From IMG/VR virus record IMGVR_UViG_3300023109_001684: a stretch of 64,000 nucleotides of DNA. One strand, 5' to 3'. Below the pieces are notes generated by a model. That model was not told the DNA's origin. It saw only the letters and a list, made by a program, of their open reading frames with translations, and did no database searches. Below are positions 36,014 through 64,000 of this stretch, one piece after another (positions within the stretch are counted from its first letter, which is position 1; each line of letters begins with the position of its first letter). Source of the stretch: a virus. The position numbers and the translations under genes are program-made.

Positions 36014-36042
36014 TTGACAACTTCTTAATTATACTGTATAAT
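36014..36042 (+). promoter_or_regulatory. Consensus sigma70 promoter TTGACA-N17-TATAAT
   Basis: TTGACA 36014-36019, TATAAT 36037-36042, exact 17-bp spacer; AGGAG RBS and GTG start at 36065. Confidence 0.9.
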
Positions 36043-36064
36043 ATGTAATTATTAGGAGAGTTTC

Positions 36065-36412
36065 GTGGACGAAAAACTATCAAAAGCATTAGATTTTAGT
36101 AATGTAATGCTAACGCATCAAGCACAAAAAAACAATCTAAAAGAGCAATACTATGCTAGTATTGACACGTATCATAATGGATCAAAATTTCTAGCAACTC
36201 CTGCATTAATTTCTTTTTGTACATCGTTACTACAACTTAAACAAGAAACTGCAATACTAATAGATTGTAACGATTTGCCGTGTAATATTGAAAATCTTAA
36301 ACAGTTTACAGATGAGTTAGTTGATTGTTATGCAACAGCTACAAACGTATACCTAAATGAATATAATAATATAAAAGTAAAACGGTCTATAACGGATATT
36401 ATTAATGACTAA
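36065..36412 (+). CDS. Hypothetical protein (first gene of enzyme island)
   Basis: 115 aa, GTG start with AGGAG RBS; overlaps next gene. Confidence 0.7.
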   Translation: MDEKLSKALDFSNVMLTHQAQKNNLKEQYYASIDTYHNGSKFLATPALISFCTSLLQLKQETAILIDCNDLPCNIENLKQFTDELVDCYATATNVYLNEYNNIKVKRSITDIIND

Positions 36413-37253
36413 TGGATGTTTATTATTTGCATACAATAATGGATTATTTGATTATATTATGCAGGCAGATTTTCTAGCCGCTAGAATAAAAAAACATTTA
36501 GATATACCTACATCAATTGTTACAAGTGATGTTGAATACGCTAATACTTTTACAAATTTTGATAAGGTAATATATAAACCTAATTCAAGTTCTAACAAAA
36601 GAAAGTTTCACTGCGGAGCGTTTTATAATAAATCCGCAGCGTTTAAAAATGATACAAGAGTTTATGCGTACGAACTTTCGCCTTATGATAAAACATTATT
36701 ACTAGATACAGATTATATTATATCTAATGATAGTTTTAAAAATTGTTTTCAAGTAAACGATGATTTTCTAATTTATAAAGACGCTACTAATATTAATACA
36801 CAGTTTTCTAAAACAACTGAGTTTAGTAAAATTAGTGATACAAGTATAGATTTTTATTGGGCTACGTGTGTATATTTTACAAAAACAGAACGTAACAAAA
36901 TCTTTTTTGATCTTCTCCAACATATACAAGAAAATTGGCATCATTATAAATCTGTTTATAGATTAAGTTATATTACATATAGAAACGATTTTGCTTTTAG
37001 TATTGCTATACATATAATGAACGGATTTCAACAAGGGTCATTTGCAAAACAAATGCCGGGTAAAAAATATTATATTACCGACAGAGATCACTGCCATAAA
37101 ATTGATGATAATAATCTTACTTTCTTGCTTGAAAAGAAAACACATCCTGGAGAATATTTCCTATCTAAAACAAAAAATATAAATGTGCATGTAATGAATA
37201 AGTTTAGTTTGGGAGAATTGTTAAATGAATTTTACAATGTTAGCTCAGAATAG
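36405..37253 (+). CDS. Putative GT-A fold glycosyltransferase (GT8/nucleotide-diphospho-sugar transferase-like)
   Basis: SPYDKTLLLDTDY DxD motif, IVTSD N-terminal strand, late HVMNK. Confidence 0.65.
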   Translation: MTNGCLLFAYNNGLFDYIMQADFLAARIKKHLDIPTSIVTSDVEYANTFTNFDKVIYKPNSSSNKRKFHCGAFYNKSAAFKNDTRVYAYELSPYDKTLLLDTDYIISNDSFKNCFQVNDDFLIYKDATNINTQFSKTTEFSKISDTSIDFYWATCVYFTKTERNKIFFDLLQHIQENWHHYKSVYRLSYITYRNDFAFSIAIHIMNGFQQGSFAKQMPGKKYYITDRDHCHKIDDNNLTFLLEKKTHPGEYFLSKTKNINVHVMNKFSLGELLNEFYNVSSE

Positions 37254-38055
37254 TACGGACGTAGATTACGTACAACAAGCATGTGTTTCTGCAATGAGCA
37301 TAAGACATACAAACCCTACAAGTAAGATCTGTTTAATTACTAATGACGCAGTTCCAAGTAAGTACAAAGAACTATTTGATGCAGTAGTAGAAATTCCATG
37401 GGGAGACTCTGCTCACAAATATGAATGGAAAATACATAACAGATTTAAGATTATTCATGCATGTCCTTTTAGCGACACTGTTGTTATTGATACTGACATG
37501 CTAATACTAAATGATCTTTCTAACTGGCAAACACATTTTGAAAAGTATGACTTTTGGATATGTAATAACGTAAAAACATATCGCAACGAGATAGTTAATA
37601 ATCAGTTTTATAGAAAAAAATTAAATAAATTTAAACTTCCTAATGTGTATTACGGACTGCATTATTTTAAAAAGTCTAAATTTGCATACGAATTTTATGG
37701 ATTGCTAGATATTATTGTTAATAATTATAGCGACTTTTTTAATCTGCATAATATGAATTTACAAAATTTTGCAAGTATGGATATTAGTAGTAGTCTTGCT
37801 ACAGCAATATTAGATTGTGAATCTGTTATTACTAATAATAGTCACTATGCACCTATGTTTACTCATATGAAGGCAAACATACAAAATTGGCAAGGACTAA
37901 AAGATAGTTGGCAAAAAGAAGTTGGCACTTATCTAACAGATGATGCACAACTATATGTTGGCAATTACAAACAAAGTAATATATTTCATTATACAGAAGA
38001 TGATTTTATTACAAGTGATGTAATTAACACATATGAAAAAATAATTGGAATTTAG
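37225..38055 (+). CDS. Putative GT-A fold glycosyltransferase (GT8-like), paralog of upstream gene
   Basis: YVQQACVSAMSI..ICLITND, CPFSDTVVIDTDML DxD motif, FTHMK, IFHY. Confidence 0.65.
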   Translation: MNFTMLAQNSTDVDYVQQACVSAMSIRHTNPTSKICLITNDAVPSKYKELFDAVVEIPWGDSAHKYEWKIHNRFKIIHACPFSDTVVIDTDMLILNDLSNWQTHFEKYDFWICNNVKTYRNEIVNNQFYRKKLNKFKLPNVYYGLHYFKKSKFAYEFYGLLDIIVNNYSDFFNLHNMNLQNFASMDISSSLATAILDCESVITNNSHYAPMFTHMKANIQNWQGLKDSWQKEVGTYLTDDAQLYVGNYKQSNIFHYTEDDFITSDVINTYEKIIGI

Positions 38056-38661
38056 ATGCGATTTAAAATACCTAAAACAAAAAAAACTGAGCCATTATAT
38101 TATAAGGTATATTACGAAAAAGCCACTGGTCAAATTATTTCTATTTCAATTAAAGACAAGCCGTCTTTAGATACTCATTTTACAACTACGTTTAACGAAG
38201 TATGCGAATTTATAGACGGAACTAAAAGTTTAATTAATTATAAAGTTACATACGATTTACAAAAAACAAAATTCCATATTGTACATAAAGATGATAAGAT
38301 TGTATTAGATGTAGATAATCTAATACATAAAATTACCCAGTCTGGTCCAGCACAACTATGTATTATAAAGGATAATATATTAAACGAATGGCAACTACAC
38401 CTTGATCTTAACTTAACAGCAAAAAATAATATTAATAATGCTGGAGTTTTAGACGAAATATTATGGTTTAGTATAACACAAGAAAATAATCCAAATATAC
38501 TATACAGACATTTCTCAGCTAGTATGCACGAACTTATAAATGAGCAAACTGTGTCTTTTAAATTTTTAAATCACAAGGAAACAGATGTAACCAAATATAG
38601 TATATATACTAATAAGAGACTAGTATCCTATTCTAAAAGAGAAATACATGAGCCAAATTAA
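38056..38661 (+). CDS. Hypothetical protein
   Basis: 201-aa ORF in operon; no recognised motif. Confidence 0.65.
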   Translation: MRFKIPKTKKTEPLYYKVYYEKATGQIISISIKDKPSLDTHFTTTFNEVCEFIDGTKSLINYKVTYDLQKTKFHIVHKDDKIVLDVDNLIHKITQSGPAQLCIIKDNILNEWQLHLDLNLTAKNNINNAGVLDEILWFSITQENNPNILYRHFSASMHELINEQTVSFKFLNHKETDVTKYSIYTNKRLVSYSKREIHEPN

Positions 38662-39574
38662 AATTTTAGATTATGACATTATATATTTGTCGTACGATGA
38701 ACCAAATGCTGATAAAAACTATGCAGATTTATTAACTAAAGTGCCATGGGCAAAACGTGTACACGGTGTAGAAGGAAGTGACGCTGCACACAAAGCATGT
38801 GCAAAATTATCAGAGACAGATAGATTTATTACAGTTGATGGTGACAATATTGTACATCCTAAGTTTTTTACACAAGTGCTAGATCTCTCTAAGCATCCTA
38901 ATTTAGAAAATAGTGTAATAAGTTGGTGTGGCAAAAATATTATTAATGGGTTAATGTACGGCAACGGTGGGTTAAAGTGCTGGCCAAAGAATTATGTGTT
39001 GAATATGAAAACACATGAAAATGCTGATCCAAATAATTTGCAAGCACAGGTAGACTTTTGTTGGGATCTAGAATACATACAGCAAAATAGTTGGTATAGT
39101 GATGTGTATAATAACGCAACACCACATCAAGCATGGCGAGCTGGATTTAGAGAGGGTGTTAAAATGGCACTTGACCAAGGTATAAAACCTACTAAAGATG
39201 ATTTTTTACGAGGGCATTGGAAAAACTTACATCGACTGTGGATATGGCTTATGGTTGGTGCAGATGTTGACAACGGTAAATGGGCAATCTATGGCGCCCG
39301 TGAAGGCCTGTACAAAACAATGTGTACTGATTGGGATTTTGTAAATGTAAGAGATTTTGAATATCTTAATCGCATGTGGAAAGAAATTGAACCTAAAGTA
39401 TCAATGGACGGACTAGAAGACTCCATTGAAGAATATGGTATTAAACTTATTAACGAACTTGAAATTCCTATTGCTGAAGAATGTCTTAATGCACAACAAA
39501 GTAAGTTCTTTAAAACAGTGTATCAAAATCCAAGCCGAAGTTCACAACAACAGTATATAATTGACCCAGAATGA
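38648..39574 (+). CDS. Putative glycosyltransferase (GT2-like, phage type)
   Basis: DIIYLSYDEPNAD...HGVEG..AHKACA..RFITVDGDN (DxD), YGNGGLK, AWRAGFREGVK; paralog of the C-terminal domain of 48116..50344. Confidence 0.65.
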   Translation: MSQIKILDYDIIYLSYDEPNADKNYADLLTKVPWAKRVHGVEGSDAAHKACAKLSETDRFITVDGDNIVHPKFFTQVLDLSKHPNLENSVISWCGKNIINGLMYGNGGLKCWPKNYVLNMKTHENADPNNLQAQVDFCWDLEYIQQNSWYSDVYNNATPHQAWRAGFREGVKMALDQGIKPTKDDFLRGHWKNLHRLWIWLMVGADVDNGKWAIYGAREGLYKTMCTDWDFVNVRDFEYLNRMWKEIEPKVSMDGLEDSIEEYGIKLINELEIPIAEECLNAQQSKFFKTVYQNPSRSSQQQYIIDPE

Positions 39575-40983
39575 GCAAAGATCAAAAAGGTGATGAAGTT
39601 AAACTACTTAAAGGCAAATATCAAAGCGTATACTTTGAAAGTAGTAAAGATCTTTTAGAAGGATTAAATCAAGTTAGTCCTAGCTTCTGTTTGGCTAAAT
39701 GGTATAGTGTGAGTTTACATTTACCAACTGGTAGAACACATAGTTGTTATCACCCACCTAGTCATCATATTCCCCTTGAAGAACTTGCTGTATCGCCTGA
39801 TGCATTGCATAATACACAATATAAAAAAGAACAACGTGCTAAAATGCTTAAAGGAGAACGTCCTAAAGAGTGCGAGTTTTGCTGGGCATTAGAAGACCAA
39901 GGCAGTATAAGTGATAGAGCATATCGTAGTAAAGATGTATACGAGCCTGAGCTTATCCAAGCAGCACAAATTGAAGAAAATCCTAAACCTAGATATTTAG
40001 AAGTAAATTTTAACCAAGCATGCAATCTTAAATGCAGTTATTGTAGTCCGCACCTAAGCACAGAGTGGCACAAAGAAGTCAAAAAACATGGGGCATACAA
40101 ATTAGCACACGGTAATCATAATGACCCGTTGTGGGTAGAAGGAATGCGTATTAACAATGCCCCTGATAGTCCGTATATACAAGCCTTTTGGGAGTATTTT
40201 CCAGAAGTATATCCTACATTAAAAACATTTCGTATGACAGGCGGCGAGCCTTTGATGGATAAAAACACTTTTAAAGTGTTTGATTATGTAAAACAAAATC
40301 CTAAATCAGATTTACAATTAAGTATTACAAGCAATTGCTGTCCTCCTAAGGGACAATGGCAAAAGTTTATTGATGATTTAAAAGAAGTATCACCTGCTAT
40401 CGATCACTTTATGCTATTTTGTAGCTTAGATAGCTGGGGGACACAAGCAGAGTATATACGACACGGTTTAGATTTTAATATAATGTATAAAAATATTCGG
40501 CAGTATCTTGCAGAAGGTACCGGACATAGTTTAACATTTATAATTACAGCAAATTTATTAAGTTTACCGGGCTATAAAGAATATATACATAATATTTTAG
40601 AGTTGCGCAAAGAGTTTAATACAGACAGACAGTTAATATGGTTTGATACTCCTATGTTGCACGATCCTAAATGGCAAAGTATGCAACTAGCAACTAGTGA
40701 TATGTTAGAGCCGTTATTAGATAGTATACAGTTTATGGAAAGTAATCCAGAGACTACACAAAATAGATACAAAGGATTTAAGGACTTTGAAGTAGACAAA
40801 GTCAGAAGACTATACGATTGGGCATGTGCATCGTTAAATACATTTGAAGAGGAACAAGCAAAAATAAACTTTTACTTGTTTTTTAAAGAACACGATCGTA
40901 GACGTAATACAGATTTATTACAAACCTTTCCAAGTTTAGAACATTTTTATAGAGAGTGTAAAGAAAAATATGAGCAGAGATAA
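39571..40983 (+). CDS. Radical SAM protein with N-terminal twitch/SPASM-like domain
   Basis: CNLKCSYC (CxxxCxxC), MTGGEP; N-terminal FC..SCYH..CEFC. Confidence 0.9.
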   Translation: MSKDQKGDEVKLLKGKYQSVYFESSKDLLEGLNQVSPSFCLAKWYSVSLHLPTGRTHSCYHPPSHHIPLEELAVSPDALHNTQYKKEQRAKMLKGERPKECEFCWALEDQGSISDRAYRSKDVYEPELIQAAQIEENPKPRYLEVNFNQACNLKCSYCSPHLSTEWHKEVKKHGAYKLAHGNHNDPLWVEGMRINNAPDSPYIQAFWEYFPEVYPTLKTFRMTGGEPLMDKNTFKVFDYVKQNPKSDLQLSITSNCCPPKGQWQKFIDDLKEVSPAIDHFMLFCSLDSWGTQAEYIRHGLDFNIMYKNIRQYLAEGTGHSLTFIITANLLSLPGYKEYIHNILELRKEFNTDRQLIWFDTPMLHDPKWQSMQLATSDMLEPLLDSIQFMESNPETTQNRYKGFKDFEVDKVRRLYDWACASLNTFEEEQAKINFYLFFKEHDRRRNTDLLQTFPSLEHFYRECKEKYEQR

Positions 40984-42322
40984 ACGAGTAGATGCAGTAA
41001 AAGAAAGACTAAACAAGATAGGTAAAGGGTTTTGCACACAAAAATGGTTGCACGAAACACTTTATCTTCATACAGGCGATAATCACAGTTGTTATCATCC
41101 ACGACCTCAACATATACCTTTACAAGAAATACAAGATAATCCAAGTGCTTTACATAATACAAAATGGAAAAAGCAGCAACGTAAGACTATGCTAGAAGGT
41201 GGTCGTCCTGATGAATGTTATTACTGCTGGAATATTGAAGATCTACCTGGCGAGCATTTAAGTGATCGGCATTTTCATAGTGCTAGTTCTTATGCTGAGC
41301 CTGTGATTGAAACACTTGCAACTATGCCTTGGGATAAAGATATAAATCCTCGCTATTTGGAAGTTAGTTTTGGTAACGGGTGTAACTATCGTTGTGGCTA
41401 TTGCTGTCCACAAGCAAGTACATTATGGATGGACGAAATTAAAAAACACGGCAACTACGATTTAACCTACAATCAATACGGTATAGACTTTTTAGAAAAC
41501 GGAACATACTACGGTCCTAAAGACGACAATCCATATATCGAAGCATTTTGGAAATGGTGGCCTAGTTTACGCAATGATCTACACACACTACGTATTACTG
41601 GCGGAGAACCTTTAATGAACCCGGGATCTATGCAGTTTTTAGATCTATTAGAAAAAGAGCCTGCTCCAAATTTAAGAATTAGTCTCAATAGTAATCTAGG
41701 AGTTTCAACAAACAAGATAGACAAATTTTATGATAGAGTAGAATCTTTACTAGAAAATAAAAAAATTAAAAAGTTTAGCTTGTTTACAAGTATAGATACA
41801 TGGGGACCGCAAGCAGAATACATGCGTACTGGAATGAATCTAGTACACTGGGAACGTAATCTAAAAGAAGCATTGCGCAGGGGATTTCAAGTAAGTCTAA
41901 TGTGTACATTTAATGTTTTGTGTGTTACAAACTTCAAAAGTCTGTTACATAAAGTAATTGAGTGGAGAGAAGAGTTTGGACACCATGCTATTGGTTTTGA
42001 TACACCGTATTTAAAAGAGCCGCCGCATTGGATGATTAATATTTTACCAGAATCATTCTTATTATACATGGACGAAACACTTAGTTTTATTGATACAAAT
42101 ATGGATAAATTTAATCCGGATGAGTATGAAAAGTTCAAGCGTGTTAGAAACTACATGAAAGAAAATCCTGTTGATCCTCTTAAAATACAACAAGGTCGCA
42201 GAGACTTTTATAGTTTCTTTACAGAAAATGATAAACGTGTTGGACTAAATTTGTTAGAAGTATTTCCTGAATATACAGATTTCTTTAATTATTGTAAAGA
42301 GGTGCATGATAATTATGGCTAA
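40970..42322 (+). CDS. Radical SAM protein with N-terminal twitch/SPASM-like domain
   Basis: CNYRCGYC, ITGGEP; N-terminal FC..SCYH..CYYC; close paralog of upstream gene. Confidence 0.9.
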   Translation: MSRDKRVDAVKERLNKIGKGFCTQKWLHETLYLHTGDNHSCYHPRPQHIPLQEIQDNPSALHNTKWKKQQRKTMLEGGRPDECYYCWNIEDLPGEHLSDRHFHSASSYAEPVIETLATMPWDKDINPRYLEVSFGNGCNYRCGYCCPQASTLWMDEIKKHGNYDLTYNQYGIDFLENGTYYGPKDDNPYIEAFWKWWPSLRNDLHTLRITGGEPLMNPGSMQFLDLLEKEPAPNLRISLNSNLGVSTNKIDKFYDRVESLLENKKIKKFSLFTSIDTWGPQAEYMRTGMNLVHWERNLKEALRRGFQVSLMCTFNVLCVTNFKSLLHKVIEWREEFGHHAIGFDTPYLKEPPHWMINILPESFLLYMDETLSFIDTNMDKFNPDEYEKFKRVRNYMKENPVDPLKIQQGRRDFYSFFTENDKRVGLNLLEVFPEYTDFFNYCKEVHDNYG

Positions 42323-43514
42323 CGGGTGCGTTAATGCTTATATGAATTTAAGTATACACCCTACTGGAGGTGTACGACCTTGTTGTATGAGTGATAAATT
42401 CTTAACAACTGATACAGGCGAAACTTCATTAGACAAAGCAAGCATTAAAGATTTTTGGTATAGTAAAGATCGTAAAGATTTTGCAGACGCACTAGACAGC
42501 GGCGAAAGGATATCAGATTGCACAGCATGTTGGCAGGAAGAAGATGCTGGCAAAGAAAGCAAGCGCATAAGAGACAACAGAGAATATAAAGATAGAACAT
42601 TTGAGTTTGAAAGTTTGCCAGTTGTGCTAGATCTAAGCATGGGCAACTTATGTAACCTAAAGTGTCGCATTTGTTCGCCAAGACATAGTACTCCGTGGCT
42701 ACGTGAGGAAGCAGAAATACACAGTCCTAAGGACATAAAAGGTTACATGAAACAACCTAAATGGTTAATTGCTAAAGAAAGTTTTGAACAAACTAACGAC
42801 TTTGTTTGGGAAGATATAAAGGAGTTACTAGAACATGCAGAACGTTTTGATTTTGCTGGCGGAGAGCCTTTTTACATTCCTGCACATTGGAAAATGATAG
42901 AACACAGTGTTACACAAGGCTTTAGTAAGAATCAATATTTACATTATAACACAAATGGTACCATTTATCCGACCAAATATATAGATTTATTGGACAAATT
43001 TAAAACAGTTGATATACAAATAAGTTCAGATGGTATAGGTAAAAAGTTTGATTATTTACGACACGGAAGTCCATTTGAATTGTGTGAAGAAAATATAGAT
43101 AAATTTTTAGTGGCTAAAGATAATGCAAAGACAACATGGTATATTGGCGCATGTTTAAGTGTAAGTGCATTTAATGTATTTGATTTTTTTGAAACGTATG
43201 AACATTATGCAGCCAAAGGACTACGCATGTATGTAAACACAGTACATGATCATCATGGAGTAAGAATTATTCCTACAGAATTAAAACAAAAGTTAATAAA
43301 AAGATTAGAAGCAACAGAAAGCAAATATGATGTACATGACTGGACTAGGCAGCGTGATATGATTTGTAATCTATTGCGTAATACAGAATACAGTGAACAT
43401 GACTGGAACAATTTTTGGAAAGAAATACGGTTAAGAGATAAAGTCCGTAATGAAAGTTTCCAAGAAACATTTCCAGAATATTACAATTTAGCAAAGGAGT
43501 ACATCAATGTTTAG
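42315..43514 (+). CDS. Radical SAM protein with N-terminal twitch/SPASM-like domain
   Basis: CNLKCRIC, AGGEP; N-terminal C..PCC..CTAC. Start moved from 42306 to ATG 42315, which has better spacing to GAGGTG. Confidence 0.88.
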   Translation: MANGCVNAYMNLSIHPTGGVRPCCMSDKFLTTDTGETSLDKASIKDFWYSKDRKDFADALDSGERISDCTACWQEEDAGKESKRIRDNREYKDRTFEFESLPVVLDLSMGNLCNLKCRICSPRHSTPWLREEAEIHSPKDIKGYMKQPKWLIAKESFEQTNDFVWEDIKELLEHAERFDFAGGEPFYIPAHWKMIEHSVTQGFSKNQYLHYNTNGTIYPTKYIDLLDKFKTVDIQISSDGIGKKFDYLRHGSPFELCEENIDKFLVAKDNAKTTWYIGACLSVSAFNVFDFFETYEHYAAKGLRMYVNTVHDHHGVRIIPTELKQKLIKRLEATESKYDVHDWTRQRDMICNLLRNTEYSEHDWNNFWKEIRLRDKVRNESFQETFPEYYNLAKEYINV

Positions 43515-48041: not shown

Positions 48042-48046
48042 ACAAA

Positions 48047-48080: not shown

Positions 48081-48109
48081 TTGACACATGTTACAAAAGG
48101 TGCTATAAT
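48081..48109 (+). promoter_or_regulatory. Consensus sigma70 promoter with extended -10 (TTGACA-N17-TATAAT, TGn)
   Basis: TTGACA 48081-48086, TG 48101-48102, TATAAT 48104-48109; ATG at 48116. Confidence 0.9.
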
Positions 48110-55455: not shown

Positions 55456-56552
55456 TTGGTATTTATAATGATCTACCGGAGCATTTACACATAGAGCCGA
55501 GTAAACGATGCAATGCGGCATGTCCTCAGTGTCCTCGAACAATCGGAGCATCTTTAAAAGCATATCCTAACTTACCACAAACTGAACTAACAGCAGATGG
55601 TATAACAAATATATTATCTGACGACTTTTTTAAAAAAATAAGAAAAGTTCTAATAAACGGTAACTATGGTGATATTGTAATGCATAGTAACCCTAAAGAT
55701 TTTATTCAAGTATTCTTAGACAAAGGATTTCGAGAAATACAAATTAATACAAATGCCGGCGGGTTAGCGACAGAGTTTTGGAGCTGGTTAGGAGCCCAAC
55801 CTAACATTATTGTAGAATTTGCACTAGACGGTTTAGAAGATACACATCACTTGTACAGAAGAAATACAAGATTTGATACAGTTATTAAAAATGCATCTGC
55901 TTATATAAAAGCAGGTGGATATGCTCGCTGGATAATGAATGTGTTTGGAAATAATGAACATCAGATTGATGCGTGTAAGCAAATGAGTAAAGATTTAGGA
56001 TTTGCTGAATTTTACAGTGATGATAGTGTTCGGTTTCATAAAGCATATGATTCTTTAGTTGATAAGAACTTTAACGAAGTAGATCGATTATACCCTACTG
56101 AATATGTAAAAAATAATAAAAAATTACAAGCTGAAGATAGATCTAAAGAATGGTACAACAAAATATATAATTATGTAAGTCAGCCATTTGATTTATTAGA
56201 TAAAAGTAGATCAGAACCGCATACTAATGGTCCTGTTGTTGTAGAATGTAAAGTAAAGCAAGGATTAGAAAGTGTATACATAAGTGCAGACGGTCGATTA
56301 TGGCCATGCTGTTGGATGGAAATAGACTATAACAAAAAAGTGTTAGATAACGGATACAGCAGCTTTGTAGATTTATTTTTTAAAACTTTAAATAAGAATA
56401 CAGACTTTAATTTATTACACAAACACACCGGTACGGAAATTGTAAACGCAGGATTATTAACGACAATTGAAAAATCTTGGTCTACTAAATGTATAGATAT
56501 ATGTAAGAGAACATGTGCAAATAAAGAACTTAGAGAAGATCATACACGATGA
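55452..56552 (+). CDS. Radical SAM protein with C-terminal SPASM/twitch-like domain
   Basis: CNAACPQC, GNYGD, ALDGLEDTHHLYRR, YISADGRLWPCC..CKRTC; paralog of 43507. Start set to ATG 55452 (ATGA overlap, GGGAG RBS). Confidence 0.9.
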   Translation: MIGIYNDLPEHLHIEPSKRCNAACPQCPRTIGASLKAYPNLPQTELTADGITNILSDDFFKKIRKVLINGNYGDIVMHSNPKDFIQVFLDKGFREIQINTNAGGLATEFWSWLGAQPNIIVEFALDGLEDTHHLYRRNTRFDTVIKNASAYIKAGGYARWIMNVFGNNEHQIDACKQMSKDLGFAEFYSDDSVRFHKAYDSLVDKNFNEVDRLYPTEYVKNNKKLQAEDRSKEWYNKIYNYVSQPFDLLDKSRSEPHTNGPVVVECKVKQGLESVYISADGRLWPCCWMEIDYNKKVLDNGYSSFVDLFFKTLNKNTDFNLLHKHTGTEIVNAGLLTTIEKSWSTKCIDICKRTCANKELREDHTR

Positions 56553-57448
56553 AATTTTGTATAATATTTACTAATAATGACAATGAGGAGTATACTTTGA
56601 AATATAAAGTATACAATACACCTATTGCTGTTAAATGGTACGAGTCGTTGTGTAAGCAAGTCCTAAACAAAGATAATAAAGTAAAAGAATCCGACAGGCT
56701 CTATAATTTTCCAGACGATGAGTGGAACGAAGAAAAAATAGTTTCAGAGTTAAATAAGTGCATCGAGACTATAAATTCTAAAACTAAAGTTATAATGCAT
56801 ACTGCATTTGTCGGAATGCCTCAAGAACAGCTAAATCATTTGCATCATTACTTCGAAGAGTTAAGAGGTGCTTCTAAAAATTCGGCAGACTATTACTTAA
56901 ATGCATCACCTAACGAACGTCTTGCTCTTGAAAGATATAATGTTATTATACATCGAGCAGAAAACTTTTATTTAGAAAACACAATTAATACATCAAAAGT
57001 ATCTCCTAGAATTGTAGTAACTTTTAAGGGAAGGAAAAAAGAATTGCTAGCAGATAACGATTATGAATACTTTACTTTACATAGAAAATTTGGAGAAGTA
57101 TATATCAATTATTGCGAAGTAGGAAAACCGTTGTATGATGTATATAAAGATAATGATGATATTGTTGGGGAAGATAATATACGTCCGTTAAAATGGTACA
57201 GTCCTGATTTTACAGCTTATTTTTTTAATCGACCTATAGAAACAGTTGAAAACTTTTTACAAGGCATGGATCTATGGTGGGATCAAAATAATAATTATTT
57301 AACTGCATTAGGGTTTACAAAGGGAGATCCGAAAAATGCAATTGGAAATATTCCGGTTGCCATGTTAGAAAGTTCTCTAACTTCTAAAGAAATAGTACTA
57401 GCAATATCTGAATACAATAATATAGATAGGGTTGAAATTTATGACTGA
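56549..57448 (+). CDS. Hypothetical protein, His/Glu-motif family (copy 3)
   Basis: LNHLHHYFEE, YNVIIHRAE, VYINYCEVGK, KNAIGNIP. Confidence 0.65.
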   Translation: MKFCIIFTNNDNEEYTLKYKVYNTPIAVKWYESLCKQVLNKDNKVKESDRLYNFPDDEWNEEKIVSELNKCIETINSKTKVIMHTAFVGMPQEQLNHLHHYFEELRGASKNSADYYLNASPNERLALERYNVIIHRAENFYLENTINTSKVSPRIVVTFKGRKKELLADNDYEYFTLHRKFGEVYINYCEVGKPLYDVYKDNDDIVGEDNIRPLKWYSPDFTAYFFNRPIETVENFLQGMDLWWDQNNNYLTALGFTKGDPKNAIGNIPVAMLESSLTSKEIVLAISEYNNIDRVEIYD

Positions 57449-58190
57449 ACAAGAAATTAAAGAAATGTTTTTCTTTAACGACAATTGGAAAAACATAGGA
57501 GTTAAATTATCAGGAGGCGCAGATAGTGCAATTATGTATTATGCTATTTGTGATCATTATAAAGATAGAGACGATGTAAACATATATCCAATGTCTCTTG
57601 ATACTAAATTTAAACCTTGGTATAGTAAAGGTGCAAAACGTATTATAGCTAAAGTTACAGAACTAACAGGAAAAAGTCCACAAGAACATATTGTTAAGTA
57701 TTCTAAAAAACACACTAATCGTCAAACAGCAGATTGGTATATAAAAGAGCAAAAAAATCTAATAATAGAAAGTCATATAAAGTTTAATTTTGATGCAGTG
57801 TACAATGGATTAACTAGTAATCCTGTTGAAGAAGATTTTTTAGAATCTATAAGACAATATTATCCAGACGATAAATTATTTGAGTTGACTAAGAAGCATA
57901 TCGTAAAAAGAGACTTTGATAGAGACTTAGGAAAAAACAAATATGGACAAAATGTAATTGATACAGGACATTTTATCAATATTAGACCGTTTGTACACAA
58001 AGATAAAAAGCTTACTGCTGAAGTTTATAAATATTACAATAGACTAGACGACTTATATCCTTTAAGCTATAGTTGCGAAACTAGATGGCAAGAACATAAA
58101 TTAGAGCAAAAACATTCGCACGAATGGAAACATTGTGGTTATTGTTTCTTTTGTGCAGAACGTATATACGCATTTGGAAAATTAGAATGA
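57441..58190 (+). CDS. QueC-like PP-loop ATP pyrophosphatase (second copy)
   Basis: KLSGGADS; SYSCE...HCGYCFFCAER..AFGKL. Start set to ATG 57441. Confidence 0.75.
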   Translation: MTEQEIKEMFFFNDNWKNIGVKLSGGADSAIMYYAICDHYKDRDDVNIYPMSLDTKFKPWYSKGAKRIIAKVTELTGKSPQEHIVKYSKKHTNRQTADWYIKEQKNLIIESHIKFNFDAVYNGLTSNPVEEDFLESIRQYYPDDKLFELTKKHIVKRDFDRDLGKNKYGQNVIDTGHFINIRPFVHKDKKLTAEVYKYYNRLDDLYPLSYSCETRWQEHKLEQKHSHEWKHCGYCFFCAERIYAFGKLE

Positions 58191-58756
58191 ATTTTGAAAA
58201 ATTAAATCTTCCGAACTATGATATAAAAAGCATATTAGATAATATGCTTGAAGATAAAGTTGTGCATTGGACAGATTTAAATCAAATTTGTATCAATACT
58301 GTAAAAGGCGAGGAAGATAATTTTTTATATGGAGCAGGAAGTTTGTTTTATGATTGGTCCAATGGTGAAGAAGTTTATGACGAAAAAGGTCATATGCGCC
58401 ATATACCTGCTAAAAGAGAAACACCGTTAAAAGAAGCAGACTTTACAAATTTGTGTAACGTATTTAAAAATACTGTGTTTGAAGATCTTTACAATGTATT
58501 AAAAGAAAATTATAATGTAGGCAGAGTTAGACTAATGAAAAGCCCACCTAAGACTTGTTTAAGTTGGCACGTGGATGATACTAAACGCATACACTATCCT
58601 ATTAAAACACAAGAAGGTTGTTTTATGATCATTGAAGAAGAAATAAAACATCTTCCGCAGCATACTTGGTGGCTTACTAATACTTTAGTAAAGCATACTG
58701 CAATGAATGCTAGTCTCGAAGATCGCGTACACCTAGTAGCCACATTACTCAAATAA
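58187..58756 (+). CDS. 2OG-Fe(II) oxygenase, aspartyl/asparaginyl beta-hydroxylase-like
   Basis: RVRLM..P.TCLSWHVD..RIHYPI.T...KHTAMN.S.EDRVHLV. Start set to ATG 58187 (ATGA overlap). Confidence 0.75.
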   Translation: MNFEKLNLPNYDIKSILDNMLEDKVVHWTDLNQICINTVKGEEDNFLYGAGSLFYDWSNGEEVYDEKGHMRHIPAKRETPLKEADFTNLCNVFKNTVFEDLYNVLKENYNVGRVRLMKSPPKTCLSWHVDDTKRIHYPIKTQEGCFMIIEEEIKHLPQHTWWLTNTLVKHTAMNASLEDRVHLVATLLK

Positions 58757-58770
58757 CACACTTCTACACC

Positions 58771-58777
58771 ATAAATA
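58771..58777 (+). promoter_or_regulatory. Putative T4-late-like promoter box (ATAAATA)
   Basis: CATAAATA in the only intergenic gap of this part of the island. Confidence 0.4.
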
Positions 58778-58788
58778 TTGTCATAGCT

Positions 58789-59229
58789 ATGACATACGAT
58801 GAATTTAAACATAACTTTCTAACCTGGGCAATAGAATATATAGAGCCTGTGCAAGATAACGGATATCCAGTATGTCCGTTTGCTAAAACAGCCAGGTTGA
58901 AAAATGAAATACAATTTATCGATGCAACTCAAGACGTATTTAATGCTTGTGCAAAGTTTGACAACAAACAGTATAAACTAGGAGTAGCTTGGTTAAATGA
59001 TAATTTATTAAATGTTGATCAAGTAATAAAAGAATTAACAGCAAAAAATGACAATCTTCTGTACTTTAAAAGTACTACTAATAGCGGTCATTTTGTTAAA
59101 AACTTTACAAACTGTATTTTTATACAAGACAAAGGCGATATTAACAAAAAAAGAGCATACTTGCAGACTACAGATTATTATCAAAATTGGCCTGAGCACT
59201 ATTTGAAAGAGATAACCGAAAATGCCTAA
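58789..59229 (+). CDS. Hypothetical protein with CPFA motif
   Basis: 146 aa; PVCPFAK N-terminal motif, YYQNW C-terminal motif. Confidence 0.6.
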   Translation: MTYDEFKHNFLTWAIEYIEPVQDNGYPVCPFAKTARLKNEIQFIDATQDVFNACAKFDNKQYKLGVAWLNDNLLNVDQVIKELTAKNDNLLYFKSTTNSGHFVKNFTNCIFIQDKGDINKKRAYLQTTDYYQNWPEHYLKEITENA

Positions 59230-59851
59230 TGTAGAACAAATGTTTAGTATTCCAATTTACAAGAAAAATTTAGGAGACTTAAATCTTCAAAGTTTTCGAC
59301 AACGAGTATTAAAACTTATGGATGTAGAAGACTACGGCGATCATATAAGCGTAGTAGGTATGAAAGACGGTAATACAATTAATACATATGGAATTGAACG
59401 CCATATGCAAACTTGGGAAGAGTCTGATCTACTTGTAAAAGAAGTTAATACAGCCTTAGCCGAGTACTGGAAAGAACTAAACTATCATCCTGACCTTCAG
59501 CCGTACATACAAGAAATGTGGGCAACATTAAGTACACGGGGAGGATTTGTTCCTAGTCATTTTCATGGTCCGACACCTATTACAGCCGTGTTTTATCTAG
59601 ATAAAACAGATAACGCAGGCGATCTAACATTACAACATCCGTTAGAAGCACTACTAGGTTCGCAACCTGTAAACTTTCCGTTTGATGAGTTTGCACAAAC
59701 TATGAATGTGCAGCAAAACGATCTAATGATGTTTCCGGGATATATTAGACACTTTACAGAAAAAAATAAAACTGATAGTATAAGAATTAGTATAGGGATG
59801 AATATTGGTTCTAAAGGAACTTATGTATCGTCGCAATGGAGTCAAGTATGA
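59222..59851 (+). CDS. Putative 2OG-Fe(II) oxygenase (TIGR02466-like)
   Basis: MW..SHFH..AVFYL..G.L..FPGYIRH...RISIGMN pattern. Confidence 0.78.
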   Translation: MPNVEQMFSIPIYKKNLGDLNLQSFRQRVLKLMDVEDYGDHISVVGMKDGNTINTYGIERHMQTWEESDLLVKEVNTALAEYWKELNYHPDLQPYIQEMWATLSTRGGFVPSHFHGPTPITAVFYLDKTDNAGDLTLQHPLEALLGSQPVNFPFDEFAQTMNVQQNDLMMFPGYIRHFTEKNKTDSIRISIGMNIGSKGTYVSSQWSQV

Positions 59852-60885
59852 TTTGGACAGAATGGGGGAAATTAAAAGAAGTAGTAGTTGGAAAAGTTTA
59901 CGATCCTGACGAAGTAGAGTCTGACTTTCTTAAAAAAGTATTAGAAGAAACAGAAGAAGATTTTCAAGTATTAAATAAAATCTTCAAAGATGCCGGTGTC
60001 AAAGTACGTAGACCAGATAATGTTTCTTTGAATGAAATTAAAACTAATCAATGGGCAACTAAGTATCCATTGCCTGCAATATGTCCTCGAGACTTCCATA
60101 TAGTATACGGAAATAACATATTGTCAACGATAGGCGGCGATCCAAATCGATACCTTGAAAGTTTATTTTTCTACAATATTATGAACGAAAAGGCTAATGA
60201 AGGAAGAAACTTTATTAGTATGCCTAAACCGCTACTTCCGAATCATTATGCAAACTATGCCGATCATGATAATATGCCATTATATCATGCTGCAAATATT
60301 ATAAAGTGCGGCAACACATTAATCCATTCTAGGCCTCATGATACTCAAGAATATGCAGATCGGCCTATTAACCAAAAAGGTCGAGGTACTAACGCAGGAT
60401 TTAATTGGGTTAAGAAAAACATTGGTTACGATGTTAACTGGGCTGAAGTTCCTGCTGCTGGACATGTAGACGGAAAGATAGCTTTGTTAAAACCTGGATT
60501 ATTAATGATTCACGATGAAAGTCTTGTACCTAAAGAGATGCAAGATTGGGATAGAATAGTAGTTGACAAACACGAATTGCCCCAACATGTAAAAAATAGA
60601 ATTAGAAATGACTTTTACAACGAAGTTATAATGAAAGATATGCCGCACTGGGTAGGATTTGAATACTTACCTATGGAAACAATCTTTGATGTTAATGTAG
60701 TAAGTATTGACGAGAATACTGTAATAACAAACGGATATAACAAAGAAATCTTTAATAAATGTAAAAAATATGGTATTGAGTGCATACCTTTTGATTTCCG
60801 CCATAGATTTTTCTGGGACTGCGGAATACATTGTATAACATTAGATCTTGCTAGAGACGATAAGATGGAAAACTTTTTGTCATGA
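59848..60885 (+). CDS. Pentein-fold amidinotransferase-like protein (glycine/inosamine-phosphate amidinotransferase family)
   Basis: EWGKLKEVVVG, CPRD, PKP, HVDG, DVNVVSID, GIHCITLDLAR. Start set to ATG 59848 (ATGA overlap). Confidence 0.85.
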   Translation: MIWTEWGKLKEVVVGKVYDPDEVESDFLKKVLEETEEDFQVLNKIFKDAGVKVRRPDNVSLNEIKTNQWATKYPLPAICPRDFHIVYGNNILSTIGGDPNRYLESLFFYNIMNEKANEGRNFISMPKPLLPNHYANYADHDNMPLYHAANIIKCGNTLIHSRPHDTQEYADRPINQKGRGTNAGFNWVKKNIGYDVNWAEVPAAGHVDGKIALLKPGLLMIHDESLVPKEMQDWDRIVVDKHELPQHVKNRIRNDFYNEVIMKDMPHWVGFEYLPMETIFDVNVVSIDENTVITNGYNKEIFNKCKKYGIECIPFDFRHRFFWDCGIHCITLDLARDDKMENFLS

Positions 60886-62057
60886 ACGAATTAGTAGTTA
60901 TAGTAAATCCTGCAAGAGACCATTATGATGTAGTTAGAGAAGTCTTTAACAATTATACATACAAGATATTAATACTTTGGTCGTCTGAAGAGGACAAAAA
61001 TACAATACATAACAAGTACAGAAAGGATGATACGAGTTTTCACTACGAAGAAGTTTATACTAAAGAAGTAATAGATCGATATGCGCAAACGCATAAAATA
61101 ATTGCCTGTATTCCCAGTGGAGATGATAGCGTTGATCTTGCATTAAAACTTCAAAATCGTTATGTACCCAAAAAATCAAATTCTCTAGAAACAATTGATA
61201 TAATCAAAGATAAAGAATTGTATTTAAATTTACTTAGAGAAAAAGGAATTGTTACTACAAGACAGTACAGTCTTAATAATATAGAAGAATATCCTGTAGT
61301 TGTAAAACCTAAAGAAAGTCGTGGCGGAAGCGAAAATGTATACTATGTGAATAGTCTATCTAGTTTACCATCCTTAAATTCTAACGATTATATAGCACAA
61401 GAATATGTTGATGGTCCGGAATATACAATAGATATTGCAACAGCATCCGGCGAACATCATTTATTACTTGCTACAGAGTATAGTAAAAAACATGGATCGT
61501 TATGGCAATATAAAGAATCGGTAATGAATTATACAGAGAATAGATATTTCATTGACGAATTGTACGAGTATGTATGTTTATGTTTAGATGCGTTAAACTG
61601 GAATTTCGGTGTTACTTGCGCACAAGTAATAGTAGATGAGAAACACAAAATACATCTAGTTGAAATAAATTTTAGAAAACACGGACACATAAGTGATCAC
61701 GGAGTTTATCTATCTTCAGGCATAAAACTATCTACACATGTTAGTAATTTATATTTAAATACTGATAAATTTAAAAACAGAATTTCTTACTACGATTATA
61801 ATCAGCCATATGAAAGATTCTGGGTTAATGTAGAAAGTTCTAAGTATATTGAAAGTATTAACTGGCCAATGTTAGAAGAGATTCCTAGCTTTATTGGAAA
61901 AATAGATCACAATATACTTTTTAATTTACCAAAAAAAGTTAATCCTTCGACTAGTATGTTAAGTAGTCTAGGTATGGTTTCTTTATCAAACTCTGATTTG
62001 GTACAATATGATAAAGATATAGAAGCATATAATAATTGGTGGAATACATATAAATGA
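60882..62057 (+). CDS. ATP-grasp domain protein
   Basis: DK, YPVVVKP..SRGGSENV, QEYVDGPEYTID and LVEINFR motifs. Confidence 0.82.
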   Translation: MNELVVIVNPARDHYDVVREVFNNYTYKILILWSSEEDKNTIHNKYRKDDTSFHYEEVYTKEVIDRYAQTHKIIACIPSGDDSVDLALKLQNRYVPKKSNSLETIDIIKDKELYLNLLREKGIVTTRQYSLNNIEEYPVVVKPKESRGGSENVYYVNSLSSLPSLNSNDYIAQEYVDGPEYTIDIATASGEHHLLLATEYSKKHGSLWQYKESVMNYTENRYFIDELYEYVCLCLDALNWNFGVTCAQVIVDEKHKIHLVEINFRKHGHISDHGVYLSSGIKLSTHVSNLYLNTDKFKNRISYYDYNQPYERFWVNVESSKYIESINWPMLEEIPSFIGKIDHNILFNLPKKVNPSTSMLSSLGMVSLSNSDLVQYDKDIEAYNNWWNTYK

Positions 62058-63076
62058 TATTTACTGAATGGGATAAGTTAACAGAAGTTGTAGTAGGTTC
62101 TACATATGATTTAGAATCGTTACAGCAATTTGACGATAACAAGTTTATAGATGGAATGGCTAAAATTTTAGAGGAAACAGAACAAGATTTTTCTAAACTC
62201 TCTGACATATTTAAAAGTTATAATGTTAAAGTACATAGGCCTAAACAACTGCCCTTATTAAAAGAAAACACTAGAACTTGGAATTCAAAGTATCCTTATC
62301 CTGCAATATGTCCTAGAGATTTTCATGTTGTGTACGGAAATACAATACTAGGTACTATCGGTGGAGACTGTAATAGATATACAGAAAGCGATTACTTCTT
62401 AGACATTATGCTTAAAAAATTCAAAGAAGGACGCAACTATATAAGTATGCCTAAGCCGCTACTACAAAGCGACTACAAGGAGTACGAACAACTAGAAGGC
62501 CAAATACTATGGCATGCAGCAAACATTATTAAGTGCGGCGACATGTTGTTACACACGCAGCCTTATGCACCGGAGCAGCACGGAAGAGGAACATATGCAG
62601 GATTAGACTGGATAAAACGTAATATAGGCTATGATGTTAAATGGGCAGAAATACCTAGAACAGGACATGCAGACGGAAAAATTGCACTAATCAAACCCGG
62701 ACTGCTATTCTGTTGGGATCCTAGTGCAATACCAGAAGAATTAAAAAGTTGGGACTATATTAAACTAGAACGCAAGCCGCTACCTGATTATTTTAATGAT
62801 ATTAAAATCCAGCACTTTTACAAAGATAAAGTCACAAGTTGGTTAGATCATTGGATCGGTTATGTAGACGAGACTGTGTTCGATATTAATGTAGTAAGCA
62901 TAGATGCTAATACTGTAATAACTAATGGTCATGATCCTGAAGTAGAACGTAAACTTAAAAAACACGGTGTTGATATGATACCTTTTGATTTTCGACATAA
63001 GTACTTTTGGGATAGCGGATTACATTGCGTAACACTAGATTTAAGTAGAGAAGGCGAACGACAGTCTTATGTATAA
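62054..63076 (+). CDS. Pentein-fold amidinotransferase-like protein (second copy)
   Basis: EWDKLTEVVVG, CPRD, PKP, HADG, DINVVSID, GLHCVTLDLSREGERQSY. Confidence 0.85.
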   Translation: MIFTEWDKLTEVVVGSTYDLESLQQFDDNKFIDGMAKILEETEQDFSKLSDIFKSYNVKVHRPKQLPLLKENTRTWNSKYPYPAICPRDFHVVYGNTILGTIGGDCNRYTESDYFLDIMLKKFKEGRNYISMPKPLLQSDYKEYEQLEGQILWHAANIIKCGDMLLHTQPYAPEQHGRGTYAGLDWIKRNIGYDVKWAEIPRTGHADGKIALIKPGLLFCWDPSAIPEELKSWDYIKLERKPLPDYFNDIKIQHFYKDKVTSWLDHWIGYVDETVFDINVVSIDANTVITNGHDPEVERKLKKHGVDMIPFDFRHKYFWDSGLHCVTLDLSREGERQSYV

Positions 63077-63788
63077 TATTGTAATAAACACACCAGAAGC
63101 ACTAGTAATAGATGATTTCTTACCTCAAGACATTTGGGATAAAATTTGGAATCAAGTACAAGTTGACAAATGGAGTCAATCAGGTGCAGATGATAAATTT
63201 TGGCATTACACTGACGGCGCAAACTATAAAAATAATAAGCGTTGGCTCACTGAAGGTCCTTTTAATGACAACAGTGATCTGTGGTTTAAACACTTTACAG
63301 AATTTCTTAATAAATGCCCCGAAGCAAAACCTTTTGCTAAAGACTATATAGAAATTGCGATGCGCTGCCATGCATATCCGGTCAACAGTAAAAACCCGTG
63401 GCACAACGATTTAGGATTTACAACTTACACTTATTATTTACACAGACACTGGCAAATAAATTGGGATAGCACACTCCTTATATGCCCCCTTGGAAGTGTA
63501 GACTATCAGCAAGTTCTTCCTTTAGAAGAAGGTACTGTGCATCACGACTGTTATACAAACACTAACAGTCCTATGGAAATGTTTCAGCAAGCTGACAAAT
63601 ATAAACCTATTATAGATTACGGTCTCGGAATGTTTGTTAGCCCTAAGCCAAACAGATTAATACTAATTAATAAAAGAGTTGTACACGGAATAACTAGAGT
63701 TGATTCTGATGCAGGCGAGAACATGCGTGTAACACTTACTGGGATGATAATGGAAAGTGATTGGAAAGAAACTAATGATTTATTTTAA
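63069..63788 (+). CDS. 2OG-Fe(II) oxygenase, prolyl-4-hydroxylase-like
   Basis: PWHND (HxD), YYLH..W..NW, PKPNRLI, VHGITRV, RVTLTG. Confidence 0.78.
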   Translation: MYNIVINTPEALVIDDFLPQDIWDKIWNQVQVDKWSQSGADDKFWHYTDGANYKNNKRWLTEGPFNDNSDLWFKHFTEFLNKCPEAKPFAKDYIEIAMRCHAYPVNSKNPWHNDLGFTTYTYYLHRHWQINWDSTLLICPLGSVDYQQVLPLEEGTVHHDCYTNTNSPMEMFQQADKYKPIIDYGLGMFVSPKPNRLILINKRVVHGITRVDSDAGENMRVTLTGMIMESDWKETNDLF

Positions 63789-64000
63789 GGAATTTCCAGA
63801 ATTAAATTGGACACCTGAATTAGGCCAACAATATCTTTTAGATAATTTACCTAATCCGTTTAATACAAACGATCCGCAAGTTGATGATATAATGAAAGCT
63901 GACAAGGGATGGTTTCATATTGGTCCAGGAGGCATACAAATGCATTATTGTGGCAGCAATGACCCTCGTTTTGAATGTTTTAAACCTATTACAGATAAGT
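63775..64000 (+). CDS. Hypothetical protein (3' truncated by window)
   Basis: Not in ORF track. ATG at 63775 overlaps the previous gene end and stays open to the window end: MIYFKEFPELNWTPELGQQY...FKPITDK. Confidence 0.6.
   Translation, partial: MIYFKEFPELNWTPELGQQYLLDNLPNPFNTNDPQVDDIMKADKGWFHIGPGGIQMHYCGSNDPRFECFKPITDK

Follow-up and report, generated by a model that had tools for sequence, protein, structure and literature searches.

The closest described counterpart of the locus treated here is the "host recognition cluster" (HRC) that T4-like pelagimyophages and cyanomyophages with genomes of about 140-190 kb carry between VrlC and gp14 (Zaragoza-Solas et al., 2020, PMC7029224). A change of the host-surface glycan and a block to superinfection are favored as its role (PMC7029224), and a survey recorded a T4-like marine virus with 12 radical S-adenosylmethionine (SAM) genes (PMC5332604). 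The locus in question is a block of soluble enzymes at positions 36065-64000 of a 64,000-nucleotide stretch, the whole of which is called the window, from the virus record IMGVR_UViG_3300023109_001684. This island is co-directional, mostly overlapping, and comprises 28 kb and 32 open reading frames (ORFs) to the window end. With about as much confidence as doubt, it is read here as a cassette-variable carbohydrate-tailoring island of a jumbo myovirus and as the counterpart of the HRC of marine T4-like phages. Both are large hypervariable regions in the structural module, with fiber genes, glycosyltransferases of the GT8 and other types, and radical SAM cassettes that are gained and lost between close relatives (PMC7029224). 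The match is judged on position and content rather than on the VrlC and gp14 flanks, and the phage lineage differs, with a Rak2/SCTP-2/XacN1-type baseplate and a 5207-aa protein. Moreover, the N_Twi family of radical SAM enzymes, the conserved promoter, the amidinotransferase, ATP-grasp and PP-loop modules, and the counterpart in Bdellovibrionota are not resolved in the description of the HRC (PMC7029224).

Virion glycosylation systems, such as PBCV-1 A64R and those acting on mycobacteriophage capsid and tail (cited in PMC12619734), share with the island soluble GT-A glycosyltransferases next to or among structural genes. They lack radical SAM enzymes, whereas the island has these together with an early-type promoter, and its acceptor need not be a virion protein. 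Gtr-type O-antigen serotype-conversion modules are phage glycosyltransferase systems thought to alter the host surface glycan and block superinfection, and depend on membrane proteins, namely a flippase and a membrane glycosyltransferase. By contrast, the island proteins are all predicted to be soluble, with no transmembrane segment predicted in any of them.

The island is a genuine accessory region, conserved in position and variable in its cassettes. All ORFs between 36065 and 63999 lie on the + strand, with the sole exception of 47403-48041, and 28 of the 31 junctions overlap or abut, which suggests translational coupling; only three gaps exceed 30 nt (36011-36064, 48042-48115, and 58757-58788). 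The genes upstream, in the first 36 kb, are homologues of baseplate hub, baseplate wedge and tail-fiber genes, and their baseplate and fiber proteins are of the kind seen in jumbo myoviruses of the Rak2/SCTP-2/Atu_ph07/XacN1 group. GC content (0.28-0.39) and GC skew are continuous from the tail genes into the island, and the junction at 36010 is spanned by independent contigs from other samples, L001 (99% identity), L076 and L077, ruling out an assembly chimera with host DNA at about 36010. A further independent contig, L104, extends the island past the window by at least 5.4 kb. The same sequences are present in estuarine and freshwater metagenomes, and at the nucleotide level the island has no match among 50,697 phage records.

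The order fiber genes, 36065, 36405, 37225, (38056), 38648, N_Twi genes (genes are named by their first coordinate; Table 1) recurs in some 100 IMG/VR loci whose proteins are 30-99% identical and among which the distal content varies. A minimal, eight-gene form follows the structural genes in the cultured Ralstonia jumbo phage RsoM2USA (ORFs 354-347, all annotated as hypothetical); the RsoM2USA paper neither annotates, detects nor discusses ORFs 347-354. The constant core consists of the small 36065 protein, two GT8-like proteins, a GT-A protein, at least one N_Twi radical SAM enzyme, a second GT-A domain and a methyltransferase-like protein. In the window it is expanded by more radical SAM enzymes, two triplets of radical SAM, unknown and PP-loop genes, iron/2-oxoglutarate (Fe/2OG) hydroxylases, and an amidinotransferase/ATP-grasp/amidinotransferase cassette. 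Whole cassettes distinguish relatives that are 90-99% identical: one (L192) lacks 52141-53943 and 55407, another (L193) lacks 59836-60882. Among 79 PP-loop loci, N_Twi homologues are present in 52, 43507-like genes in 50 and 53100-like radical SAM genes in 49. On phage contigs, 368 relatives of the amidinotransferases and more than 456 of the PP-loop proteins were found, most of the examined loci lying amid N_Twi and SPASM radical SAM genes. The first-pass annotation of this DNA had described a phage-encoded, operon-like and tightly packed run directly after the tail genes, lacking membrane proteins and continuing past the window, and this description holds. Among its grounds for doubt were a chimeric junction and homologues scattered independently in relatives; neither is found, the families co-occurring recurrently in phage contigs. 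The "Moraphages" (PMC12619734), considered as relatives, belong to a different lineage, and radical SAM enzymes are unmentioned in that paper.

Exactly two sites in the window match the sigma-70 consensus TTGACA-17-TATAAT at 12 of 12 positions, against 0.21 expected. These promoters, P1 and P2, occupy two of the three island gaps longer than 30 nt, facing 36065 and 48116, and head two large gene runs, 36065-47415 and 48116-58756. P1 forms a phylogenetic footprint: in an alignment of 14 diverged loci the TTGACA of the -35 element is invariant and the -10 element nearly invariant, while spacer and flanks vary. A site with 11-12 of the 12 positions, a 17-nt spacer and the same offset as P1 is present in 24 of 38 distinct orthologous loci, compared with 5 of 780 random control windows, and of 103 such strong sites across 1.7 Mb of related loci, 41 immediately precede a 36065 orthologue. 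In RsoM2USA, no consensus sigma-70 site is found upstream of ORF354, where a hairpin is located instead. The fiber genes 30637 and 32188 are instead preceded by an ATAAATA..CATAG motif. The perfect match of P1 and P2 and the conserved P1 footprint indicate that the island has its own host-polymerase, early-type promoter and not just the late-type signals of the fiber genes; to judge from the sequence, the unmodified host RNA polymerase could transcribe it, probably at an early stage of infection. A terminator was looked for at 36010 and not found, so that late transcripts may also read through into the island. These sigma-70-type promoters weaken the argument from co-expression with tail proteins, and the ranking of an unusual glycan or post-translational modification of virion proteins as the first candidate, proposed initially, is not borne out; remodeling of the host surface, the supply of precursors or a role related to DNA would agree with an early-type promoter no less well than decoration of the virion.

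The motif ATAAATA-N(2-5)-CATAG is found three times in the window (30599-30612, 32142-32155, and 58771-58786; 0.21 expected), each time just upstream of a gene start. It resembles the T4 late consensus, TATAAATA, and may be the late promoter of this phage. The function of the copy at 58771-58786 is doubtful, because it ends only 3 nt before the ATG of 58789.

Nine radical SAM enzymes are encoded in the island (39571, 40970, 42306, 43507, 44717, 51008, 52141, 53100, and 55407). Each contains one CxxxCxxC motif and matches Pfam or NCBIfam radical SAM models; 39571, 42306 and 55407 stay under the Pfam gathering score but have support from NF033640 or further models of the superfamily. NF033640 (N_Twi_rSAM, twitch domain-containing radical SAM protein) is an NCBIfam catalogue entry without an assigned substrate or reaction, and has a curated cut-off of 170 bits. 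Five island proteins exceed this cut-off (177-317 bits) and share an N-terminal Cys-rich domain before the CxxxCxxC core, whereas 43507, 52141, 53100 and 55407 score 31-35 bits and fall outside the family. The N-terminal domain appears twitch-like and is a putative cluster-binding domain; in 44717 its Cys 11, 29, 30, 71 and 74 are invariant (15 sequences). Related near-complete genomes contain 4-18 N_Twi matches each, and none scores above the cut-off in 14 control genomes. The core of the 44717 structure model (pLDDT 88.7) matches SkfB (Z 13.9), BlsE (12.9), and CteB, PFL-AE and anSME (12.7 each), with MoaA and viperin also among the matches, all effectively tied. As these neighbors include peptide maturases (SkfB, CteB, SuiB, anSME) alongside sugar and nucleotide enzymes (BlsE, DesII, viperin, MoaA), the fold picks no substrate.

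A four-Cys twitch-like domain is found in three arrangements: at the N-terminus of a radical SAM core (52141-52530), as a separate ORF after a radical SAM core (53708-54013), and at the N-terminus of a Glycos_transf_2 protein on a Bdellovibrionota chromosome (L190:7150-7546, - strand). The N-terminus of the latter protein matches the domains of 52141 and 53708 with E-values of 2e-13 and 2e-9, respectively.

The AlphaFold model of 38648 (pLDDT 87.6) combines the GT-A fold with an invariant DxD motif (D64-x-D66). Its Foldseek matches, at probabilities of 0.98-1.0, are ThuS/SunS, WrtF, RmlT, TarP and PBCV-1 A64R (probability 1.0 and TM 0.40 by target for A64R). Via fold comparison, residues 3-155 superimpose on B4GALNT1 (Z 10.7, rmsd 3.1, 141 residues) and on many GT-A enzymes at Z about 9-10. 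GT-A-fold nucleotidyltransferases score nearly as well, so that transferase activity is a prediction from the model; a profile search against Protein Data Bank (PDB) sequences gave nothing credible. The C-terminus of 48116 is 34% identical to 38648 (E 7e-32; Pfam Glyco_tranf_2_3 at E 0.015). Its repeats (48116-49660) share 27-50% mutual identity, with E-values down to 1e-35, and in repeat 1 a similarity to part of the GT-A domain persists (E 9e-8). In 36405 and 37225 the likeness lies in conserved DxD motifs, invariant in 36405, whereas in 37225 D89 never varies and at least 90% of sequences have D91. A profile of 21 orthologues of 36405 matches glycogenin-1 weakly but consistently (E 0.027, residues 17-122, about 105 residues), and neither protein matches Pfam even at E-values up to 5. 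RsoM2USA ORF353 is 36% identical to 36405, and in RsoM2USA 36405 and 37225 cross-match each other. In many relatives, 38648-like and 48116-like parts are joined in one protein of 540-1221 aa; the longer fused forms of 38648 and of N_Twi proteins contain no informative extra domains.

A profile scan for N_Twi proteins across one genome per prokaryotic species places their relatives overwhelmingly in Bdellovibrionota, a result that a single-protein scan of bacterial genomes, which gave no match, did not reach. The chromosomal clusters in this phylum are flanked by housekeeping genes and include several N_Twi and SPASM radical SAM genes, 53100/53708-like and QueC-like PP-loop genes, pairs of 38648-like and 50325-like genes, and 62054-like amidinotransferases. 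They also contain genes for Asp/Asn hydroxylases, FA_desaturase, TauD, B12-dependent radical SAM and SET-domain proteins. The isolate Bdellovibrio sp. HCB2-146 has an N_Twi gene overlapping the start of a gene for a UDP-glucose/GDP-mannose dehydrogenase; epimerase/dehydratase and DegT aminotransferase genes come next. The same locus carries 62054-like and 56549-like genes, and the 56549 homologue (28% identical) adjoins the genes for an epimerase and a UDP-sugar dehydrogenase. A second chromosome from this phylum has radical SAM genes interleaved with two Glycos_transf_2 genes. By its gene neighborhoods, this bacterial context favors a sugar substrate.

Most of the enzyme inventory of the first-pass annotation is confirmed by checks against Pfam, NCBIfam and motifs, with fold models for 38648 and 44717: the nine radical SAM enzymes stand, as do two PP-loop proteins (SGGxDS is invariant in both), two amidinotransferases and the ATP-grasp ligase. 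The amidinotransferases align over their full length with StrB1/AGAT (E 7e-68 over 346 residues for StrB1) and conserve HxD, with its catalytic His, and the Cys of a C-terminal GxHC. StrB1, their best match, acts on an aminocyclitol phosphate. The island genes differ from StrB1 in being paired around an ATP-grasp ligase, and the Asp of the StrB1 FDAAN motif is replaced by His in phage and Bdellovibrionota. This F/Y/W-H-A-A-N form is present in 5 of 5 aligned amidinotransferases, from the window and from Bdellovibrionota (L140, L145, and L136), and all five retain the catalytic His and the GxHC cysteine. Among the four glycosyltransferases proposed, 38648 and its paralogue 48116 are upheld by fold, DxD motif and homology, and 36405 and 37225 are glycosyltransferase-like. 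Of four oxygenases, 58124 and 59222 are established and 63069 matches its family weakly, whereas 45923 has no family or PDB match and is at most a lead. Homologues of 63069 stand beside amidinotransferase homologues in 41 of 78 viral loci. The methyltransferase, 50325, is a lead from its Atlas neighbors, with no useful Pfam match at E-values up to 5; 50325-like genes accompany 38648-like genes in RsoM2USA and Bdellovibrionota and are a constant partner of GT-A and N_Twi genes. For 47403, the short-chain dehydrogenase/reductase (SDR), all matches are weak.

The QueC likeness of the PP-loop pair consists only of SGGxDS and a C-terminal Cys cluster. Their identity as QueC was rejected, at 19.7 bits against a TIGR00364 cut-off of 150.3. 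In Vibrio phage KVP40 (L107, bases 132879-137161), two radical SAM genes, one of them distantly N_Twi-like, a gene for a 297-aa hypothetical protein and a QueC-like gene are adjacent. This neighborhood recalls the triplets of radical SAM, unknown and PP-loop genes in the island; detectable similarity is confined to the radical SAM genes.

If the island tailors carbohydrates, its glycosyltransferases would assemble a sugar structure, drawing on nucleotide sugars of the host or of the phage. Radical SAM enzymes would then rewrite unactivated sugar carbons by epimerization, deoxygenation, oxidation or C-methylation, PP-loop, ATP-grasp and amidinotransferase proteins would attach amide or amidino groups, and the oxygenases would hydroxylate the structure. 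The acceptor could be the virion fibers, a host envelope glycan serving as receptor, or a soluble intermediate, and the combination of soluble proteins and an early-type promoter fits host-glycan remodeling or precursor supply as well as virion decoration. The links to sugars are the GT-A fold with DxD in 38648, the GT8-like signal of 36405, the StrB1-like amidinotransferases and the sugar contexts in Bdellovibrionota. In the phages, NAD-dependent epimerase/dehydratase genes are present in 5 of 5 large relatives tested, and a UDP-sugar dehydrogenase homologue is encoded no more than 10 kb away in 11 of 102 and 9 of 157 viral loci.

Several points weigh against carbohydrate tailoring. A nucleotide-sugar synthesis gene, a flippase, a polymerase and an acceptor are all absent from the window, and only some 3-10% of the examined loci have canonical sugar genes beside those of the N_Twi family. 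The GT-A fold is common to nucleotidyltransferases, a fold search with the N_Twi model cannot separate peptide-type from sugar-type radical SAM enzymes, and the Asp/Asn hydroxylase, SET and B12-dependent radical SAM genes of the bacterial clusters would suit protein or lipid substrates as well. FA_desaturase genes are located just past the window end, and the timing of the promoters is read from sequence only. Finally, at least two promoters of its own and the cassette differences among close relatives suggest that the island may not make one product.

A further step can be proposed only tentatively, and may well be wrong. It holds that N_Twi radical SAM and GT-A proteins form an undescribed class of carbohydrate-editing catalysts, which would rewrite sugars during or after glycosylation. 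Giant phages would express them from a conserved, early, host-type promoter to re-code the surface glycan recognized by their fibers (receptor masking or superinfection exclusion) or to coat those fibers, and in predatory Bdellovibrionota the target of this toolkit would be the envelope of the predator itself. Radical SAM-rich islands beside fiber genes are common in large aquatic phages, as shown by hundreds of contigs here and noted before (PMC7029224; PMC5332604), and none has a known product. The window, a jumbo-phage variant of a genomic feature already outlined in the literature, is among the richest versions, with nine radical SAM enzymes and amidino- and amide-forming modules. Its conserved sigma-70 footprint predicts when the island is expressed, and two cultured systems are at hand, RsoM2USA for the core of eight genes and Bdellovibrio sp. 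HCB2-146 for the connection with a nucleotide-sugar operon. If real, a radically edited glycan of receptor or virion would bear on the competition of phages for hosts and add new enzyme chemistry.

Alternatively, the island may be a hyperplastic accessory region, in which independent small modules with their own targets (the glycosyltransferase core, the radical SAM/PP-loop triplets, the amidinotransferase cassette and lipid-type oxygenases) have gathered at a recombination-tolerant site beside the fiber genes. This is unlikely, although it accounts for the loss or swap of whole cassettes in L192 and L193, a turnover of the kind described for host recognition clusters (PMC7029224), and for the two perfect promoters inside the island, joined by a third candidate signal. 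The FA_desaturase and further hydroxylase genes on the opposite strand just past the window also agree with it. However, the same families co-occur repeatedly in hundreds of phage contigs and in Bdellovibrionota clusters, nearly all junctions overlap, and genes of the GT-A, methyltransferase-like and N_Twi kinds stay associated in phages as in bacteria. In view of the promoters and cassette differences, the single coordinated pathway with one product that was proposed at first is no more than a possibility. The likeness to a natural-product cluster, proposed with it, is loose: the dense tailoring enzymes are there, but a core synthase, a precursor peptide and a transporter are missing.

Direct post-translational modification of virion proteins or of a peptide, with glycosylation as one step only, is quite unlikely. 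Here SPASM/twitch radical SAM enzymes, hydroxylases and ligases would cross-link, epimerize, hydroxylate and amidinate residues of fiber or structural proteins. The position of the island directly behind the fiber genes in all relatives would suit such a role, as would the maturases of ribosomally synthesized and post-translationally modified peptides (SkfB, CteB, SuiB, anSME) among the top fold matches of 44717, the match of 38648 to the peptide S-glycosyltransferases ThuS/SunS and to the capsid-glycosylating A64R, the Asp/Asn beta-hydroxylase family member of the island and the SET-domain gene of its bacterial counterpart. However, no free-standing, precursor-like small ORF lies between the overlapping island genes, the 115-aa product of the first gene has no conserved Ser, Thr or Cys, and neither a leader-recognition protein nor a protease or exporter is seen, searches of the window giving no match to peptidase or transporter families; a large protein encoded outside the island may still be the substrate. 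In addition, Bdellovibrionota chromosomes have the same enzyme set in the absence of phage structural genes, in one case as part of a nucleotide-sugar operon, and the island promoter is of the sigma-70 type rather than the late-type motif of the fiber genes.

Hypermodification of DNA or nucleotides, in which early enzymes would make a modified or glycosylated base that evades host restriction, is very improbable: the early-type sigma-70 promoters, the 2OG oxygenases and glycosyltransferases, the two QueC-like PP-loop enzymes, both encoded one gene downstream of a radical SAM gene (whose product is small and QueE/NrdG-sized in the first case), and the similar pairing of an N_Twi-like radical SAM gene with a QueC-like gene in KVP40 agree with it, but family searches of the window genes show no FolE, QueD, DpdA/TGT, hydroxymethylase or nucleotide kinase, the PP-loop proteins stay far below the QueC cut-off, the Bdellovibrionota counterparts show no DNA-transfer enzymes, and the KVP40 genes other than radical SAM lack detectable similarity.

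Table 1. Promoters and genes of the island, in window coordinates.
Feature	Coordinates	Strand	Evidence or remark
Promoter P1, perfect sigma-70 consensus TTGACA-17 nt-TATAAT	36014..36042	+	followed by Shine-Dalgarno site and start of 36065
115-aa helical protein, first module gene	36065..36412	+	conserved in ~80 viral loci and RsoM2USA ORF354
GT8-like glycosyltransferase-fold protein	36405..37253	+	DxD D101/D103; weak glycogenin-1 profile match
Distant paralogue of 36405	37225..38055	+	DxD D89/D91
201-aa protein, in some relatives only	38056..38661	+	no family match
GT-A-fold glycosyltransferase-like protein, C-terminal helical domain	38648..39574	+	AlphaFold model, fold match, DxD
N_Twi radical SAM	39571..40983	+	NF033640 317 bits; CNLKCSYC motif
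N_Twi radical SAM	40970..42322	+	NF033640 310 bits
N_Twi radical SAM	42306..43514	+	NF033640 289.5 bits; Pfam SPASM residues 8-76, N-terminal to radical SAM core
Radical SAM with C-terminal SPASM-like domain	43507..44742	+	Pfam Radical_SAM 12-181; weak SPASM 292-382
N_Twi radical SAM	44717..45922	+	NF033640 280 bits; Pfam SPASM residues 11-75
Two proteins, 206 aa (45923) and 298 aa (46519)	45923..47415	+	no family or PDB match
Rossmann-type SDR-like protein, sole minus-strand gene	47403..48041	-	PHROG FabG-like E 0.005; PDB SDR E 0.07
Promoter P2, second perfect sigma-70 consensus, extended TG	48081..48109	+	in 74-nt gap before 48116
Five degenerate ~100-aa repeats and GT-A domain paralogous to 38648	48116..50344	+	repeats 27-50% identical; C-terminus E 7e-32 to 38648
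Putative class I methyltransferase-like protein	50325..51011	+	nearest named Atlas clusters Methyltransf_31/PCMT-like (lead only)
N_Twi radical SAM, borderline	51008..52156	+	NF033640 177 bits vs 170 cut-off
Radical SAM with N-terminal four-Cys twitch-like domain	52141..53112	+	Pfam Radical_SAM E 3e-14
Small radical SAM core (53100-53711) and twitch-like domain as own ORF (53708-54013)	53100..54013	+	
Paralogue of 56549, start probably ATG 53988	53943..54821	+	BLASTP E 6e-07 to 56549
PP-loop ATP pyrophosphatase, QueC-like C-terminal Cys cluster	54805..55455	+	
Radical SAM, start probably 55452	55407..56552	+	Pfam/NCBIfam, CxxxCxxC
299-aa protein	56549..57448	+	no family
Second PP-loop, QueC-like enzyme	57432..58190	+	
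Fe/2OG hydroxylase, Asp/Asn beta-hydroxylase family (Asp_Arg_Hydrox)	58124..58756	+	PF05118 E 1e-08
146-aa protein	58789..59229	+	preceded by ATAAATA..CATAG motif 58771-58786
2OG-Fe(II) oxygenase (2OG-FeII_Oxy_5)	59222..59851	+	PF13759 E 5e-13
Amidinotransferase (pentein fold)	59836..60885	+	full-length match StrB1 E 7e-68; also HsvA, SxtG, AGAT
ATP-grasp ligase	60882..62057	+	PF02655 E 9e-11
Second amidinotransferase, 51% identical to 59836	62054..63076	+	
2OG-oxygenase-like protein (63069-63788) and start of next ORF	63069..63999	+	2OG-FeII_Oxy_3 E 0.035 (weak)

Pfam searches at E-values up to 5 gave nothing useful for 36065, 38056, 45923, 46519, 50325, 53943, 56549 and 58789. The first of these also has no PHROG family, and its orthologues share few invariant residues. 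For 56549, the Atlas contains no usable model or neighbor. The candidate relationship of 46519 to 56549 was rejected, no relation being detectable, and only the 53943/56549 pair is confirmed as paralogous.

Outside the island, a single ORF of 5207 aa (10377-26000) lies between the baseplate wedge and fiber genes. Short stretches similar to it are found in RsoM2USA ORF361, a protein of 2541 aa detected in virions by its authors. No tRNA genes were found in the 64-kb window. Beyond the window end, L104:6052-9412 carries, on the opposite strand, an Asp_Arg_Hydrox gene and two FA_desaturase genes, so that lipid-type oxygenases stand right after the island. The same interval also encodes a ferritin-like/DUF455-like protein of 185 aa.

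For 53943, 55407, 57432, 58124 and 52141, the start of the longest ORF (GTG/TTG or a far-upstream ATG) reaches 49-71 nt into the gene before it and probably makes the reading frame too long. ATGs further inside, at about 53988, 55452, 57441 and 58187, would restore the usual overlaps of 4-17 nt.

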